A stretch of 35,770 nt of DNA from a virus. The DNA lies in UHGV virus genome UHGV-0348126; one strand, 5' to 3'. The notes beneath the pieces are model-generated. The model was not told the DNA's origin. It saw nothing but the letters and a program-made list of their open reading frames with translations, and did not search any database. The stretch's first letter is position 1, and every line of letters begins with the position of its first letter. The position numbers and the translations under genes are program-made. This document shows positions 1,909-28,205 of the stretch, one piece after another.

Positions 1909-2453
1909 GCCTCCATCGCTTTATCAGGTTTGTCGGTGTTACTGCCCTGACCGTTCTCTCTGTGACGATGCCCGTTATAGGCAAGCCGCATCGCTGACAT
2001 GGTGGTGCCGCTGGAGTCGCACAGGTCTTTCACTTGTCCTGTCACTTCCAGGTCCATTTCAAAACGTGCTTTAGGTGAATTGCGAAACGTGATCGTTTTA
2101 CCTGCACCGTCCACCACGATCCCCTCCCGGGTCAGCGTCACGGACTGCCCCTGATCGTCATAGACAGCCACCTCACCCGTCTGCAGCCCTTTCAGGCGGT
2201 AACGCCGATCCGACACCGTAACAACCACCGCATGAGAACGGTCGCCATCCGGAAACAACACCACCGCTTCCGCACCGCTGTTTGCCCTTGCGGTAAAACC
2301 GTAAGGTTCAAGATGTTCAACCCCGGCTTTGGGTTCACCGGCAATCAGGGACACATCCACGGTCTGACATTTCGTTGCGGCACTGATGCTTTTCACCACG
2401 GCCCGCCCAATCAGCCCGAGGAGTTGTCGCTGTATGGTTTCAATCGCCCTCAT
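1905..2453 (-). CDS. baseplate assembly protein V / spike (Mu gp45-like)
   Basis: 182-aa ORF; position and recalled similarity to phage baseplate assembly protein V; 1-nt overlap with upstream gene. Confidence 0.7.
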   Translation of the reverse strand: MRAIETIQRQLLGLIGRAVVKSISAATKCQTVDVSLIAGEPKAGVEHLEPYGFTARANSGAEAVVLFPDGDRSHAVVVTVSDRRYRLKGLQTGEVAVYDDQGQSVTLTREGIVVDGAGKTITFRNSPKARFEMDLEVTGQVKDLCDSSGTTMSAMRLAYNGHRHRENGQGSNTDKPDKAMEA

Positions 2454-3532
2454 CAGAACGGGTCCTCCTGTACTCTGGCTTTTTTCTTTTTCCGCGCGCC
2501 GGGATCTTCGGGTTCAGGCAGATAAGCATCAGGCGGGCCGACACGGATTTCCGTCAGGGTGCCGTTCTGGTCCTGAGTAAACGTGACTTCCGAAACAAGC
2601 AGTTCGGTATTGTCGAAACCACAGACCGGATCAAAGACAATCACCCGCTGGTTGGGCTGCCACAGCGTACCGTTACCCTGTCGCCAGCCCTGCACCACAT
2701 AGGTGGTTTCATCCGTCCGCGCCGCCCGTTGTCGGGCTTCAAAGTCAGCACGCGCAATACAGCCTGCCCCCGTGGCCTGCCCTGTCTGCCTGATATACAT
2801 CGGACGGTAACGGGCAATAAATGCGTCCTCTGTGCGGGCCCGCAGCGCGGTGGTGGTGGCCTCACCGAAATCATCGTCGTTTCCGGCACGCTGCCCCGCC
2901 ACCTGGTAAACTGAAAACCGCTCCCGGATACTCTTCTCCGTATCACAGGAAAGGATGTTTTCCCCAAGTACCAGCGCGGTATGTGCCCGCGTTGAGCCAA
3001 TACCGCCAATCACCAGCCTGCCGTGCGGGTCGTCGTAAGCCAGTGCCTGCTGCTGACCGAGTATTTTGTTGATTACCTCAATCACCGTTTCACCGTGATC
3101 AGGCTGGACGTCAGGAATAACACCCGACGGCGCACCGTTGTTCACCACCTCAATGCCGAAGGGCGCAGCAAGCGCCTGCGCAATCTGTACCAGCGATCGT
3201 CCGTTAAACTGTGTCGGTTCGGCTGCACAGTCAATCAGATCAGCGGTTAGACTGCGTCCGGCAATACCGGTGCTGACCGAACGGGCATCGTAACGAACGG
3301 GCGTCGCCTCCACCCAGCCGGTGATCACCAGCTCATCACCAATCAGCACTTCCACTTTTGAACCGTTTTTAATGCGCGGCTGAAGCGTGGTGATACCCTC
3401 ATCTCCCGGCCACTGGCGGGTGATCTCCACACTGAAATCCCGCGCCAGTCGTTCAACACCGGCACCGATGCGCACCGATGTCCAGCCATTCCACTCCCGG
3501 CCATTTACCCGTAGCGTGACGTTATCGTTCAT
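2453..3532 (-). CDS. tail protein, Mu gp44 (P) / P2 gpD-like baseplate hub
   Basis: 359-aa ORF directly downstream of the DNA circulation protein gene as in Mu; 4-nt overlap with upstream gene. Confidence 0.7.
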   Translation of the reverse strand: MNDNVTLRVNGREWNGWTSVRIGAGVERLARDFSVEITRQWPGDEGITTLQPRIKNGSKVEVLIGDELVITGWVEATPVRYDARSVSTGIAGRSLTADLIDCAAEPTQFNGRSLVQIAQALAAPFGIEVVNNGAPSGVIPDVQPDHGETVIEVINKILGQQQALAYDDPHGRLVIGGIGSTRAHTALVLGENILSCDTEKSIRERFSVYQVAGQRAGNDDDFGEATTTALRARTEDAFIARYRPMYIRQTGQATGAGCIARADFEARQRAARTDETTYVVQGWRQGNGTLWQPNQRVIVFDPVCGFDNTELLVSEVTFTQDQNGTLTEIRVGPPDAYLPEPEDPGARKKKKARVQEDPF

Positions 3533-8141: not shown

Positions 8142-9637
8142 TATGCGGACTCCTCTGAATACTGAAGACGGAACTGGTTAACCACGGCAAAGACACGCAA
8201 CTGGTTAACATAGTCAGGCGGGAACAGCGTGTTCAGGCGGTTCGGATCGCTGGCATCACGCTCCACAACCAGGTACTGCTTAAAAAGTTCGTAGTTTTCC
8301 ACGATCCCCGCACGCTCAAGCTGACGGTAGGTTGCCAGCAGTTCCCCTTTGATCACCGCCGGGGTGACAATCGCCTGACCGGGACCAAAGCGGGTACCGT
8401 CGCTGGCAAGCTTGTGACGCCCGTACTTACTGGTAATGACGGATTTCAGTTTGCGCAGTACATACGCACTGGTATGCAGCGTCTCGCTGTCGAGGTAGCT
8501 GTTATCCGCAACCCCGTAAGCGTTTTTCCTGTACGTGGTGACATCACGCTGAATGCGCAGTACCCCGCTTTCGACATACGCCGTTGCCACGCCATGAGAC
8601 AGCAGGGTCTGTTGTTCGGTCATCGTGAACCGTTTCCCCTTCGGCGAAGGCAGCATACCCACCAGCTCACCGGTCTGCGTGGGACGTGCCGGATCGTTGC
8701 GGATAAACACCGCTGCGCGGGCGGTACGGCTTGCCGCCAGCTCGTCGGCAGGCGTCTGGGTCTCTTTTTCGTACCCCGCCAGGGTAATGTGCTGCTGGTT
8801 AAACTGGTCACCTGCGGTCACCAGTTCTGACAGCGTGCCGATCTTTGCCGTATACACATGACCATACAGCTGACGCGCATAGCTCCAGCGACCGCTGGTA
8901 TCGTTCATCTCGGTCACCAGCGTGTTAACGGAGGCCGTGTCGTTGAACGGCAGGCCGATATAATCAAACGGCTCATCCGCCATTGCAGCCACCGCGCCGG
9001 TGAGAACCGGAGCACCCGTTCCGGCGGTACCCGTCGCCACGGCAATCTGTACGCCCGCTGGCAGCACTTCGCCCCCACCAAAGCCGTAGTAATTGAGGCT
9101 GACAGGAATTTCATTCCCGCAAAGCCCCTTATGGCGAGCGGTCAATGTAACCACACCAGCCGAAGATGAGGCCGTAAACGGCAGGGCCGGAACGGCATTG
9201 ATGGCATCTTTGATACTGCTGGCAATCGTCGCGACGTTATCGCCGTTGGTCACCGGTGCCTGCACGCGGGTACGTCCCACATAAACATTCACCGTGCCGG
9301 TTTCGGTTGCTGCCCCGGTCACCGTCAGCGTAACTGTTGCCGCCGCGCCTGTGGATTCAGGAACGGCAATCACATACAGCTCGCCAAACGGGTCAGTCTG
9401 GCGATAAGCCTCGACCATACGCGCCAGCTGACTTCCCGCACCACAAATCTGGCGTGCATAGTCTGCCGACGGCATCAGTACCAGACTGTTGGCAACAATC
9501 TCTGCACCGTTATTGGCATGACCAATCAGCAGCGATGCTCCGCTGTCCTGTGCAGTATTCGCCGCCTGGTTATCCATTTCCGCATAAAACAACGGAACCA
9601 GCGTATTCGACGGAATGGTGTTAAAGCTTATCGTCAT
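8141..9637 (-). CDS. contractile tail sheath protein (Mu L / gp39-like)
   Basis: 498-aa ORF; size, position upstream of the tube gene and recalled sheath-family resemblance. Confidence 0.85.
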   Translation of the reverse strand: MTISFNTIPSNTLVPLFYAEMDNQAANTAQDSGASLLIGHANNGAEIVANSLVLMPSADYARQICGAGSQLARMVEAYRQTDPFGELYVIAVPESTGAAATVTLTVTGAATETGTVNVYVGRTRVQAPVTNGDNVATIASSIKDAINAVPALPFTASSSAGVVTLTARHKGLCGNEIPVSLNYYGFGGGEVLPAGVQIAVATGTAGTGAPVLTGAVAAMADEPFDYIGLPFNDTASVNTLVTEMNDTSGRWSYARQLYGHVYTAKIGTLSELVTAGDQFNQQHITLAGYEKETQTPADELAASRTARAAVFIRNDPARPTQTGELVGMLPSPKGKRFTMTEQQTLLSHGVATAYVESGVLRIQRDVTTYRKNAYGVADNSYLDSETLHTSAYVLRKLKSVITSKYGRHKLASDGTRFGPGQAIVTPAVIKGELLATYRQLERAGIVENYELFKQYLVVERDASDPNRLNTLFPPDYVNQLRVFAVVNQFRLQYSEESA

Positions 9638-25473: not shown

Positions 25474-26288
25474 CCCCTGAATCCTGCCGGGATCTGGCTG
25501 TAGTCCACGTTGTCGTAACTGGATTTGAAGTACGGGTCCTCACGTCTGGCTGCAGATACCGCAGGAACTTCCCAGGATTCTTCGAAATGACGATCCGGAC
25601 CAAAGAACGTGACAGCCTGTTTCACAAATTGTGTGCCGCTATTGCCCATCGCAGATACCCAGCCCGCGTAGCGTTTCACACCTTCCAGCATGGTTTCGGG
25701 GTTTACTCCCTCATTCAAACGGGCTTTCCAGGCTTTGAAGGCTGCAGATTTTGAATTGCCACCAGCACGTTTGGGGTATGCCAGCCATGTCTGCTCAAAC
25801 TCCGGAGAGTATTCCGGTCGGTTTGAACGAACTCGCACAGACTCATCAGCAGATTCACCAACAGCTATTGGTTCATTGACTGGTTCTTTGACTGATTCAA
25901 AAGAGTGACTGGTTCTGGGTGAATCTCCTGCACTACCCCCTGGTGCAACTCCTGCACTACCTGGTGAATTTGCTGCACCAGATAGTGAATTATTTGCACT
26001 ACCCCCTAGTGAATCTCCTGCACCATCCAGATGAAGGAGATAGATATTACTTGAGTTACCTTTTTCACCTTTCCGGGTGACTTTTTTTACCAGCCCGGAC
26101 TCACAAAGGGCCGCAATATGATTCATCACAGAACGTTTGCTAATCTCGCACTGGTCAGCAATATGCTGGTAGCTGGGCCAGCACTCACCCTGATCACTGG
26201 CATTATCAGCCAGCTTGATCAGAACCAGTTTTCGCAATGGATTACCCACTCGAATTTTCATCGCTTTAACCATCAGCTCCATACTCAT
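25470..26288 (-). CDS. replication initiator (lambda O-like; N-terminal HTH, Gly/Ser/Ala/Pro linker, C-terminal domain)
   Basis: 272-aa ORF; N-terminal winged-helix-like region (RKLVLIKLADNASDQGECWPSYQHIADQCEISKRSVMNHIAALCESGLVKK); the linker GAGDSLGGSANNSLSGAANSPGSAGVAPGGSAGDSP is encoded by the iteron repeats, as in lambda O. Confidence 0.7.
   Translation of the reverse strand: MSMELMVKAMKIRVGNPLRKLVLIKLADNASDQGECWPSYQHIADQCEISKRSVMNHIAALCESGLVKKVTRKGEKGNSSNIYLLHLDGAGDSLGGSANNSLSGAANSPGSAGVAPGGSAGDSPRTSHSFESVKEPVNEPIAVGESADESVRVRSNRPEYSPEFEQTWLAYPKRAGGNSKSAAFKAWKARLNEGVNPETMLEGVKRYAGWVSAMGNSGTQFVKQAVTFFGPDRHFEESWEVPAVSAARREDPYFKSSYDNVDYSQIPAGFRG
25919..26023. repeat. five iteron-like direct repeats (candidate replication origin) inside the initiator gene
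   Basis: Plus-strand 15-mers GTGAATCTCCTGCAC (25919), GTGCAACTCCTGCAC (25943), GTGAATTTGCTGCAC (25964), GTGAATTATTTGCAC (25985), GTGAATCTCCTGCAC (26009); spacing 24/21/21/24 bp; an AT-rich stretch follows at 26030..26060. Confidence 0.6.
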
Positions 26289-26509
26289 GCTGCACCTCCG
26301 AGATGCTTCATGTTTTTTCCGGAGCGAAAGGCTATAAGCGGCATACTGACGCGGTAATTACGGCCCAGCGGTTCACAAACCACCTTCTGACATTCACGGT
26401 CAACCAGGCTAACACGTAGAACATGCCCTGCAGGCGTGGTGTACCACTGACCCGGACGAGGACAACGGAAAGTCTGATTGGTAAAACGTTTGAAAATATT
26501 CCGGATCAT
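26285..26509 (-). CDS. hypothetical protein
   Basis: 74-aa ORF with ATGA overlaps to Rha (upstream) and the replication initiator (downstream). Confidence 0.4.
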   Translation of the reverse strand: MIRNIFKRFTNQTFRCPRPGQWYTTPAGHVLRVSLVDRECQKVVCEPLGRNYRVSMPLIAFRSGKNMKHLGGAA

Positions 26510-27657
26510 TTGCGCCCCCTTACCTCTGAAGGGTTCAGCGACAAATTTATGAGGCAGGCCAGCGCCGAAGCATCATTAATATAGTCATATAAGCTAACAG
26601 CCAGCGGAGATTCGGCTTTTGCCAACATAGGATAAAGCTGCTGCAGCCAGACCTGATGAATTGATGAAATGTAGGAACAGAGAACGCTGGCGTTATGTGC
26701 AACGTCGCTCGGTACAGCGGGCTTTGAAAGCTGTTTCTCCATCTGGTTAAAGGCATTGATGTATGCCTCTTTGAACTGGGCAGCACGTTTACCCGTGAAA
26801 CCCATAGCAAGAAACGCAAAGCCGTCGCGGGTTATTTGATAGCAAGGTAGTTTGCGGCCTGTGCAATCGGTGTAATCACTCACCGAAAAATTGCGGGCAG
26901 TGAATGATGCGGAGCATTCAAGCGTGCGGATCTTTTTCAGTACATCGTCATGACGTTTGGAGAAGAAGTTGGCAACAGCCAGGGATGAAGTAACAGCCTG
27001 ACCATCAACGATGGCAATTTCAGGTTGAGTGAGGGTTGGGATCGTAGCCATGATGGCAGCCTCTTTGGTGATTTTAAATAACTCACCACCAAGGCTTTCC
27101 ACGACCTTATTGGTGGTGAGACGTACAGGGGTGGAAATACCGGTCACCAAAGAACCCGGCCCAACCGAAGTTGGCCCTGCACGCCCCACCATAATTTGGG
27201 CGTAATGCTGCTCATGACACAAAAAAACCGCAAGAGCGCGGTTGTGCGCTTTGGTGAATTCCGGGTTTCCACGCCCGGCACCCGCTTTATAAGGTGCCTG
27301 AACAGTGTAACGTCCCGGAATGGCAGAATCAATGTGCTGGTGGTCCTTCACACTCAACAAAATCACGCCTGAATTTCCACAAAGGACTAAAGCACTCATG
27401 CGGGTAGTCTTTGCGAAGATAGATAACGCGCTGTGTTTCTGGCTCCCAACGAATAACATGAACATAAAGTCCTCTTCCGTCACGAAACCAGCGGTTAAGT
27501 TCCTGCACAACTCGCCCCCCACAGTCAGGTAAAGTTCTCTGTGGTTACTTACAGCCAGGTGATTTGGTAATCTGCATTCATGCCGTAACAACAGGTGTTC
27601 AGCCACGCGGACCACCAGCTGTTGCGACCAACGGTTATTTGCCGTTAAACTGTTCAT
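26506..27657 (-). CDS. Rha-family regulatory protein; Rha-like domain occupies 26506..27051 (alternative start ATG 27051), preceded in frame by a 202-codon extension of unknown function
   Basis: C-terminal 181 aa (MATIPTLTQPEIAIVDGQAVTSSLAVANFFSKRHDDVLKKIRTLE...) recalled as Rha-like, with AAAGAGG RBS 9 nt upstream of ATG 27051; the full ORF start at 27657 overlaps the upstream gene stop as ATGA. Confidence 0.55.
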   Translation of the reverse strand: MNSLTANNRWSQQLVVRVAEHLLLRHECRLPNHLAVSNHRELYLTVGGELCRNLTAGFVTEEDFMFMLFVGSQKHSALSIFAKTTRMSALVLCGNSGVILLSVKDHQHIDSAIPGRYTVQAPYKAGAGRGNPEFTKAHNRALAVFLCHEQHYAQIMVGRAGPTSVGPGSLVTGISTPVRLTTNKVVESLGGELFKITKEAAIMATIPTLTQPEIAIVDGQAVTSSLAVANFFSKRHDDVLKKIRTLECSASFTARNFSVSDYTDCTGRKLPCYQITRDGFAFLAMGFTGKRAAQFKEAYINAFNQMEKQLSKPAVPSDVAHNASVLCSYISSIHQVWLQQLYPMLAKAESPLAVSLYDYINDASALACLINLSLNPSEVRGRK

Positions 27658-28205
27658 GCGTTAGTTTCTCCACAGACACAAAACGCCACGACGCCCGGAG
27701 CTGCACACTCGCGGGCGTCACTCTTTTCTGGAACGCAGAAAATTTTGTAGACCAGTGCCGCATGTTCCTGGAGCTTCGAAATCGACAGATACAACTCATC
27801 ATTAATTGCTGTCTGCTCATGTGGCTCCACTACCCCGTCTTCGATTGCCGAACGAATCTGCTTTGAGTAACTCCCGATCTGTTCAATAACTTCCAGTAGA
27901 CGTTGGTTGATATCAGCGTTCTCTACTTCCTCAATTTCTGGAAGTGATACAAACACCCCACCAGCAGACTGTGCGACAGCATCCGCAATGTGGTGAGTAC
28001 CAGCCGCACGCTGTAAAACCATTGCCCATCCCAACGGAAAAAACTGATCGCCATCGGCACGAAGGCGGTTGAATAAAGCGTTCTCTGTTACATCCAGCCA
28101 CTCAGCAGCTTCAGCGTAACCCCCCGGCAACGCCGCGATAGTTTTTCTGACAGCTTTCACGTACCACTCAGGCTGTTTTTCCACTTTCCAGTGATGCTTA
28201 CCCAC
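27654..28205 (-). CDS. putative CII-like / YdaT-like early regulator
   Basis: 183-aa ORF directly after cro, overlapping its stop; assignment by position and weak recall only. Confidence 0.35.
   Translation of the reverse strand: MGKHHWKVEKQPEWYVKAVRKTIAALPGGYAEAAEWLDVTENALFNRLRADGDQFFPLGWAMVLQRAAGTHHIADAVAQSAGGVFVSLPEIEEVENADINQRLLEVIEQIGSYSKQIRSAIEDGVVEPHEQTAINDELYLSISKLQEHAALVYKIFCVPEKSDARECAAPGVVAFCVCGETNA

Follow-up and report, generated by a model that had tools for sequence, protein, structure and literature searches.

The window analysed here, the whole 35,770-nt stretch of UHGV virus genome UHGV-0348126, carries on its minus strand a long open reading frame (ORF) in which a Rha-like domain is preceded by 202 codons in the same frame. 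The question is what this extension is and what keeps it open. A first-pass annotation had suggested either an unusual two-domain Rha protein or about 600 bp of apparently non-coding DNA. We propose instead that the long ORF is the lambdoid-prophage counterpart of the eta gene of phage P4, in which a complete c4/CI RNA cassette lies within a frame that ends in a nested, separately initiated Rha gene, and we put the probability of this reading at roughly 0.6. The extension is a composite and holds no ordinary protein domain. The anatomy of the locus, its homology, its antisense complementarity and its selection pattern can be demonstrated at the sequence level; by comparison with P4, the open frame probably lets ribosomes arriving from the upstream gene override the c4 switch.

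A long frame with a nested Rha gene

The frame, its couplings and the gene nested in it are the following.

26506..27657, minus strand: long ORF of 383 codons, an in-frame fusion of YmfM-like, Eta ("Ash")-like and Rha parts.
27657-27654, minus strand: ATGA overlap between the upstream TGA stop (27656-27654) and the long-ORF ATG (27657-27655).
26509..27051, minus strand: nested Rha protein of 181 amino acids from ATG 27051, the positional homologue of P4 kil ("..EAAIMAT..").
26506..26509, minus strand: ATGA overlap between the long-ORF stop and the next gene (26285..26509).

Over 27052..27657, frame 0 contains no stop codon whereas the two other frames contain 12 and 10, and only 4 of 20,000 dinucleotide-preserving shuffles of the 202-codon extension were free of stops, which confirms the open frame. 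The ATGA at its start is present as had been claimed. The same coupling recurs along the operon, not only at the end of the long ORF but also at 26288-26285, where gene 26285..26509 is joined to a replication-type gene. The separate ribosome-binding site (RBS) ascribed to the in-frame ATG at 27051 was found too, a Shine-Dalgarno (SD) sequence AGAGG at 27064-27060, 8 nt upstream. The domain that follows is a clear Rha domain (Pfam Phage_pRha, PF09669, amino acids 223-308 or about 26734-26991, 106.2 bits against a cut-off of 29.9), and the Rha part also matches TIGR02681 (103.1 bits against 45.95).

A PDB sequence search with the N-terminal 202 amino acids returned only noise (E at least 0.34), and NCBIfam gave no match for the N-terminus, the DUF4222 ORF or the YmfM-like ORF described below. 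PHROG 821 matches amino acids 61-383 of the long ORF. The odd composition reported earlier holds for His, which is enriched (5.0% against 1.9% in the long ORFs of the window), and slightly for Cys (2.0% against 1.2%), but not for Arg (5.9% against 6.0%); Asp is depleted (1.5% against 5.9%). Besides ATG 27657, possible alternative starts are GTG 27351, ATG 27399, which is the choice of PGAP, and AUG 27192. The full-length ORF is annotated in mEp460, ST64B (sb41) and the PGAP annotation of AR_0055.

The extension contains an RNA cassette

An Rfam scan of the whole window gave C4 and isrK as the sole matches above the curated thresholds. Both lie inside the extension, in the following arrangement.

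27304..27332, minus strand: promoter-like site, TTGATT (27332-27327), a 17-nt spacer and TACACT (27309-27304).
27221..27297, minus strand: IsrK/seqA-type RNA (Rfam isrK, RF01394, 67 bits against a gathering threshold of 50).
27109..27196, minus strand: c4/CI-type antisense RNA (Rfam C4, RF01695, full-length, 83.6 bits against a gathering threshold of 45).
27060..27102, minus strand: second target region (seqC, or a2-b2), with a2 GTGGAAA at 27102-27096 and b2 TCACCAAAGA at 27071-27062.

The IsrK/seqA RNA, to which the c4-a1b1 family of Rfam also matches weakly, carries an intrinsic terminator (a stem at 27243-27226 followed by a T run) that was also flagged by a terminator scan. It holds the first targets of c4, a1 (27272-27266) and b1 (27257-27249). 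The a' linker of c4 (27137-27131) is complementary to a1 and again to a2 (27102-27096), and its b' loop (27152-27144) is complementary to b1 and again to b2 (27071-27063). Moreover, b2 overlaps the SD sequence of ATG 27051. The AUG at the 5' end of c4 (27192-27190), which has no recognizable SD sequence before it, is in frame with the long ORF and is the equivalent of the first AUG of Gifsy-1 orf45. A nested in-frame ATG 58-63 nt 3' of c4 is common to many loci.

The promoter-like site, with a predicted start at about 27297 and a -35 hexamer that overlaps the stop codon of the DUF4222 gene, is proposed purely from positional homology. Its position and geometry equal those of P4 PLE (TTGCCT-17-TATAGT), and TTGnnn-17-TAnnnT lies directly 5' of the seqA hairpin in every lineage sampled.

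The predicted c4 fold was evaluated on related loci. The long outer helix is present in about 90 of the collected c4-like loci. Across 50 variants including those of the window and P4, 93.9% of the cells were paired, compared with 31-50% when the partners were slid; 15 pairs had changed on both sides, and the covariation score was 0.476 against 0.07-0.13 for the slid controls, helix 3 and the tetraloop being uninformative because they were fixed by the search pattern. Across 44 distinct c4 loop variants, exact complements of 7-11 nt to the b' loop and to the a' linker occur at fixed positions, upstream as well as 34-43 nt downstream of c4. Downstream complements of at least 8 nt were found in 27 of the 44 loci with their own c4, but in only 31 of 1882 cross-locus pairs. 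Judged from these alignments, the RNA switch looks real and intact.

When the window was compared with 1720a-02, cdtI and a third phage, divergence was 1-3% in the first 329 nt, 21-28% in the RNA cassette and 10-17% in Rha, and the c4 loops and both target pairs changed jointly. Between phages that are otherwise nearly identical, the immunity cassette seems to be swapped, or to diversify, as one unit. Such an exchange of hypervariable loops together with their targets could bear on heteroimmunity, as it would yield heteroimmune variants.

Counterparts in P4, P1/P7 and Gifsy-1

A close parallel is P4, in whose genome the Rfam C4 and isrK families match the CI RNA and seqA. Like the long ORF of the window, ORF199/eta of P4 starts with an ATGA on the stop of the preceding gene (ORF88) and has both RNAs inside it. 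In a DNA alignment, PLE and the promoter-like site of the window, seqA, T run, c4 and second target are collinear, and the layout of the window follows the P4 order eta/kil-PLE-seqA-CI-seqC. The stretch from the SD sequence to the ATG, GAGGCTGCCATCATGGCTAC, is identical before the P4 kil start and window ATG 27051; the nested Kil of P4 starts "..QEAAIMATTLTPSHPE" and the nested protein of the window "..KEAAIMATIPTLTQPE".

The two loci also differ. The nested gene encodes a 181-amino-acid, antirepressor-type Rha in the window and the 65-amino-acid Kil in P4, and the upstream partner is cII/ymfL in the former and alpA/ORF88 in the latter. Unlike P4, the window ORF has about 105 extra YmfM-like codons that overlap DUF4222. 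The window belongs to a lambdoid prophage, whose CI/Cro/CII switch is made of proteins, whereas P4 is a satellite with the RNA as its only immunity factor. Between seqA and CI, P4 is longer by about 78 nt; this insert (P4 about 8510-8590) begins with a second copy of ATTATGGTG, the motif that marks the c4 5' end, and is possibly the remnant of a duplication.

The P4 immunity region was reportedly described by Forti et al. (1999, J Bacteriol 181:5225) and by Sabbattini (1995). According to a later account, CI/seqA interactions terminate the transcript from the promoter internal to eta, which is processed to CI, whereas Kil translation takes place on read-through; full-length Eta is made only from an upstream promoter, translationally coupled to the alpA homologue (PMC10111431). 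The same source, summarising Forti et al. (1999), states that eta translation prevents termination (PMC10111431).

The immI operon of P1 and P7 (c4-icd-ant1/ant2; Citron & Schuster 1990, as cited in PMC3632133) has a c4 RNA of the same Rfam family, and the window c4 has a weak direct DNA match to both phages. As in the window, the a'/b' loops are complementary to a1/b1 upstream and a2/b2 downstream, and the RBS that the downstream target overlaps belongs to the first frame translated before the antirepressor. However, P1 and P7 have a separate icd gene, whereas the c4 region of the window lies within a single frame fused to the antirepressor.

IsrK and C4 correspond to seqA and CI, and the system is carried by some lambdoid prophages (PMC3632133). 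In Gifsy-1, orf45 starts at the position of the c4 5' AUG and overlaps a processed c4-like RNA of about 80 nt, STnc1160; it is translated and required for expression of the AnrP antirepressor, and its nucleotides are conserved while its amino acids vary (Hershko-Shalev et al. 2016, PMC4825925). The Gifsy-1 layout, with an IsrK that has its own promoter and a leaky terminator and with an antirepressor-like gene downstream, resembles that of the window. However, Gifsy-1 IsrK is an activator in trans, and its locus, unlike that of the window, does not sit within a long frame that is coupled to a gene upstream. Whereas orf45 ends as AUGA on the anrP start, the window leader is fused in frame to Rha because no stop lies between the in-frame AUG 27192 and ATG 27051. 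An orf45-anrP fusion has been noted in S. dysenteriae (PMC4825925), and a short-leader class with its own stop before the antirepressor exists among the other c4 loci.

The RNA families, the nested-gene logic of P4 and the IsrK-C4 systems of lambdoid prophages are thus already published. New at this locus are Rha as the nested gene and the extension of the frame by a YmfM-like segment that overlaps DUF4222.

Selection differs from region to region

Upstream of the RNA cassette, the long ORF overlaps a second gene and adjoins the gene to which it is coupled.

27343..27657, minus strand: YmfM-like part, codons 1-105 of the long ORF (BLASTP to YmfM of the E. coli K-12 prophage e14).
27329..27508, minus strand: DUF4222 gene, 59 amino acids, GTG start, in a frame other than that of the long ORF.
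27654..28205, minus strand: CII/YmfL-like gene, 183 amino acids (Pfam Phage_CP76, 56.5 bits; "protein YmfL" in PGAP).

Codons 1-105 are 32% identical to e14 YmfM (E 9e-9) and match phrog_1170. The first 49 codons (27657-27511) lie 5' of DUF4222, and the remaining 56 or so YmfM-like codons overlap it in the other frame. The DUF4222 gene matches its profile (PF13973) with 51.1 bits against a cut-off of 27 and also phrog_1343, and is annotated by PGAP in some genomes but not in others.

Ratios of nonsynonymous to synonymous substitution rates (dN/dS) were obtained by comparing the window with ST64B, 1720a-02, cdtI and Lys8385Vzw. The Rha part behaves as ordinary coding sequence, with a dN/dS of 0.17-0.32 and an excess of third-position changes. 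From seqA through c4 to seqC, by contrast, the long frame has a dN/dS of 0.69-1.72, the other frames are similar, and the substitutions relative to cdtI fall on the three codon positions as 26/25/26, i.e., without periodicity. Amino-acid selection is absent over the RNA cassette by these measures.

In the DUF4222 overlap, the DUF4222 frame has a dN/dS of 0.08 and the long frame one of 3.5, and 14 of 20 substitutions relative to ST64B fall on the third codon position of DUF4222. Across the informative comparisons, c4-less relatives included, dN/dS for DUF4222 is 0.03-0.12. The substitution pattern indicates that in the overlap DUF4222 is the frame under amino-acid selection. A DUF4222-based search for related loci yielded only sequences 97-98% identical, and phage records served as the divergent control instead.

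For codons 1-49, the long frame has a dN/dS of 0.28 and the other two frames have 1.20 and 0.46 (relative to ST64B, the one informative comparison, with 33 substitutions), which is suggestive of amino-acid constraint in the long frame. In c4-less relatives, the corresponding stretch before the overlap belongs to an ATGA-coupled ymfM ORF of 112 codons; its dN/dS is 0.30-0.31 in two of three comparisons and 0.68 in the third, against at least 0.7 in the other frames. We considered 27509-27657 as an untranslated spacer and rejected this, since dN/dS favours the long frame and the stretch has YmfM homology.

Pfam does report a domain in the extension, Phage_ASH (PF10554), at amino acids 117-213 or nt 27309-27019 (59 bits against a cut-off of 26). 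This stretch is exactly that of isrK, c4 and the downstream target. In P4, Phage_ASH matches amino acids 22-146 of Eta/ORF199 (P4 8330-8704), which is again the RNA cassette. With the dN/dS values given above and no periodicity, purifying amino-acid selection of the kind expected for a protein domain was not found for Phage_ASH.

Neither of the two first-pass suggestions holds in the form in which it was put, though each is correct in part. The N-terminal part of the long ORF is no conventional protein domain, with dN/dS near 1 over the cassette and 3.5 over the DUF4222 overlap. Nor is the DNA empty, for it holds the DUF4222 gene, the promoter-like site, IsrK/seqA, c4 and the downstream target.

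The frame appears to be kept open

Each of the 12 homologous loci first retrieved, with identities as low as 82.5% (ST64B), has the extension frame open from a point at or adjoining the upstream stop; loci with other C-terminal domains are among them. Indels in the extension among homologues are of 3 or 6 nt, all multiples of 3. Stops or frameshifts in homologues had been named as grounds for discarding the extension; we looked for them and found none in any homologue of this architecture.

A wider sample gave a similar picture. Among 68 c4 loci with an AUG at the c4 5' end, the frame of this AUG is open through c4 in 67 and extends 87-903 nt downstream; it is mostly open for 180-580 nt upstream as well, whereas the other frames usually stop within 43-107 nt. 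In the hypervariable c4 loops, a frame-0 stop occurs in 1 of 50 variants, compared with 9.4 expected from letter shuffling.

Within the overlap, the choice of synonymous codons in DUF4222 follows the long frame. In eight diverged sequences, all 33 DUF4222 Leu and Val codons whose NTR form would put a stop into the long frame are NTY, whereas those at which NTR is harmless end in Y in 11 cases and in R in 17 (n = 28). After random synonymous recoding of DUF4222, the long frame was still open in only 4-8% of trials; the third frame contains 4-7 stops.

The cassette ORF is coupled by ATGA to unrelated upstream ORFs of 273, 546, 552, 618, 708, 915, 1026 and 2703 nt. The stress that had been laid on this coupling was well placed, as it is apparently a real design feature that recurs in P4 eta and in many unrelated contexts. 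From the patterns above, the long frame appears to be kept open by selection.

How upstream translation could override the switch

The mechanism that we propose follows P4, the c4-icd-ant operon of P1 and the IsrK-orf45-AnrP system of Gifsy-1 by analogy (PMC10111431, PMC4825925). In a lysogen, the early promoter would be off and the internal promoter on. Most of the internal transcripts would end at the IsrK terminator, and those that read through would be processed to c4 RNA; in P1 and P4, RNase P cuts the mature RNA from a longer transcript. By pairing with a2/b2, c4 is proposed to block translation of Rha from ATG 27051, so that no antirepressor would be made. Once the early operon is being transcribed, ribosomes that reach the end of cII would re-initiate at ATG 27657 and translate on through the promoter, seqA, the terminator, c4 and seqC. 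This passage would prevent the terminator and c4 structures from forming and c4 from pairing, so that Rha, as the long isoform, and the downstream replication genes could be expressed regardless of c4. Transcripts from the internal promoter would stay repressed by c4. That upstream-driven translation of the long ORF would suppress termination and immunity has indirect support in the apparent selection for an open frame.

If this is so, the 202 N-terminal residues are for the most part a by-product, and selection acts on the openness of the frame and not on the protein sequence, save for the first 50 or so YmfM-like residues. In its most general form, the proposal is that the 383-codon frame is selected to stay open across DUF4222, the promoter, the terminator and an antisense-RNA gene with its targets, that the passage of ribosomes matters and not the protein, and that the early operon thereby overrides its own c4 immunity and terminator. 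We hold this wider claim tentatively, at slightly less than even odds. If it is true, the widespread "Ash domain" of Pfam is what an RNA cassette yields when translated and not a protein domain, and the YmfM-Eta-Rha product is either a lytic-phase isoform or a by-product.

Several points weigh against the P4-like reading. Translation from 27657, the internal transcription start, processing of c4 and repression by c4 are all steps that we infer. A ribosome in the long frame would have to cross a really coding DUF4222 gene and an intrinsic terminator. The candidate SD sequence of ATG 27657, GGAG at a distance of 10 nt, is not ideal, and the real start of the cassette ORF in the window may be GTG 27351, the aligned counterpart of the ATG that begins the cassette ORF of locus L037, or ATG 27399. 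With such a later start, the join to the YmfM frame could be incidental, a frame match having a chance of one in three. Codon-usage log-ratio and GC content at third codon positions (GC3) did not discriminate among frames or regions. A sigma-70 scan of 26900-27800 flagged no promoter; the scanner is silent on the promoter-like site because only 8 of 12 consensus positions are matched. The c4-like loci were taken from IMG/VR by a loose pattern in which the UUCG loop and one helix were fixed; frames were scored only in those with a 5' ATG (n = 68; 11 loci lack it). About 18 of these 68 loci, which are P1/Gifsy-like, have a stop in the frame between seqA and c4, which means that not all c4 loci allow translation through seqA. 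Finally, the counts of avoided stops are not independent because the sequences are related.

The first alternative, which we consider unlikely, is that the extension is never translated, that Rha is made as the 181-amino-acid protein from ATG 27051, and that the open frame and the ATGA are side effects of G+C-rich conserved RNA and of the neighbouring genes. The neutral dN/dS of about 1 and missing periodicity over the cassette, the selection on the DUF4222 frame and not on the long frame, and the terminator and promoter-like site within the frame are all consistent with this explanation. Annotators often split the ORF, and a conserved RNA would automatically give a conserved "protein" such as Pfam Ash. 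However, stop-free shuffles are too rare (4 in 20,000) for the open frame to fit easily, and the frame remains open at 15-28% divergence with indels only in multiples of 3. Stops are avoided at all 33 at-risk DUF4222 codons and in the hypervariable loops (1 against 9.4 expected), the ATGA coupling recurs in unrelated contexts, and the first 49 codons have a dN/dS of 0.28. Furthermore, P4 eta and Gifsy-1 orf45 have been found experimentally to be translated (PMC10111431; PMC4825925).

A second alternative, also unlikely in our view, is that only a short leader from the c4 5' AUG (27192) matters, that its translation on read-through transcripts from the internal promoter brings ribosomes to Rha, as with Gifsy-1 orf45, here giving a fused isoform of 228 amino acids, and that the 465 nt of open frame upstream are YmfM, joined by accident. 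An AUG at the c4 5' end is nearly universal in our sample, and AUG 27192 corresponds to the first AUG of orf45, at +107 of the IsrK transcript (PMC4825925). The S. dysenteriae orf45-anrP fusion (PMC4825925) provides a precedent for the fused form, YmfM is a stand-alone ORF of 112 amino acids in c4-less phages and e14, and the cassette ORF of L037 has its own ATG where the window has GTG 27351. However, most cassette loci are open well upstream of seqA and start as ATGA on the preceding gene, and AUG 27192 has no recognizable SD sequence. ST64B keeps the YmfM-frame fusion, and so does Stx1_14744, in which the upstream gene is a different one. P4 genetics, as PMC10111431 relates it, credits anti-termination to translation from upstream of PLE.

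The idea that the 383-amino-acid product is a true multi-domain regulator, with a folded N-terminal "Ash" domain working with the Rha domain, is very improbable: although Phage_ASH and Phage_pRha match one conserved polypeptide, PHROG 821 covers amino acids 61-383 and Rha/Ash proteins of Shiga-toxin (Stx) phages have been described as two-domain proteins (PMC8951638), the Ash match spans the same stretch as seqA-c4-seqC in the window and in P4 alike, the dN/dS values of its frame (and 3.5 over the DUF4222 overlap) are not those of a domain, variation tracks RNA pairing and antisense-target covariation and not amino-acid conservation, the N-terminus has no PDB or NCBIfam sequence match, and Gifsy-1 orf45 likewise conserves nucleotides and varies in amino acids (PMC4825925).

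Annotation of the module and its distribution

Returning to the P4-like reading, recognition of the cassette gives a consistent annotation for a module that over 1,400 of 5,426 complete E. coli genomes carry, Stx-converting phages included. In public records, the same DNA carries three incompatible annotations, namely a 383-amino-acid Rha, DUF4222 with a shortened Rha that begins at different codons in different records, and an "ash family protein". The c4 and IsrK RNA genes are annotated in none of the public records fetched. Since the cassette would control an antirepressor-type protein beside a CI/Cro/CII switch, it could affect prophage induction, including that of Shiga-toxin phages, and heteroimmunity.

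The statement that Pfam Ash is P4 epsilon (PMC8628076) was examined and rejected, because epsilon matches PF25738 and Ash matches Eta. A survey of P4 satellites used PF10554 as an "epsilon/Ash" marker (PMC8628076). As PF10554 matches Eta, and epsilon, which acts in helper derepression, matches PF25738, this marker probably detects the immunity cassette and not epsilon. That the Ash match falls on the RNA cassette and shows no protein-level constraint may be under-appreciated, and so may the evidence that stops are avoided in an overlapping frame. The locus offers a natural case of an ORF that is conserved and matches a Pfam family, yet whose protein sequence is not selected, and an example of an overlapping frame kept open without amino-acid constraint.

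YmfM and DUF4222 in e14 and other cassette-less phages

YmfM of the E. coli K-12 prophage e14 is an SOS-inducible division inhibitor (bioRxiv 10.1101/2020.11.19.390815). As in the window, e14 ymfM, which begins MNSLT.., overlaps the ymfL stop as ATGA and shares part of its DNA with a DUF4222 ORF in another frame. However, in e14 and other c4-less phages YmfM ends after 112 codons, just 5' of the replication gene, whereas the frame of the window continues into the c4 cassette and Rha.

The DUF4222 ORF harboured by e14 ymfM (2323..2661 of its record) is unannotated; it has 59 amino acids and a TTG start and lies at 2502..2681. In relatives of e14, dN/dS in the overlap is 0.03-0.11 in the DUF4222 frame (where dS can be estimated) against 3-6.7 in the ymfM frame. 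As the published ymfM clone carried most of the DUF4222 ORF, it may be worth looking again at how the filamentation phenotype was assigned.

In the cassette-less phages, the YmfM-frame ORF ends 10 nt before the ATG of the replication gene and DUF4222 ends 11 nt after it, which suggests that the two overlapping frames would both deliver ribosomes there; the alternative frame is likewise kept open near the start of the replication gene. Another overlap was found upstream: an ORF of 61 amino acids in a different frame (27635..27820, minus strand) overlaps the 3' end of the cII/ymfL gene, and an equivalent open frame of 91-92 codons ("..KLTHEQFN..") is present in e14 and SfIV-like phages.

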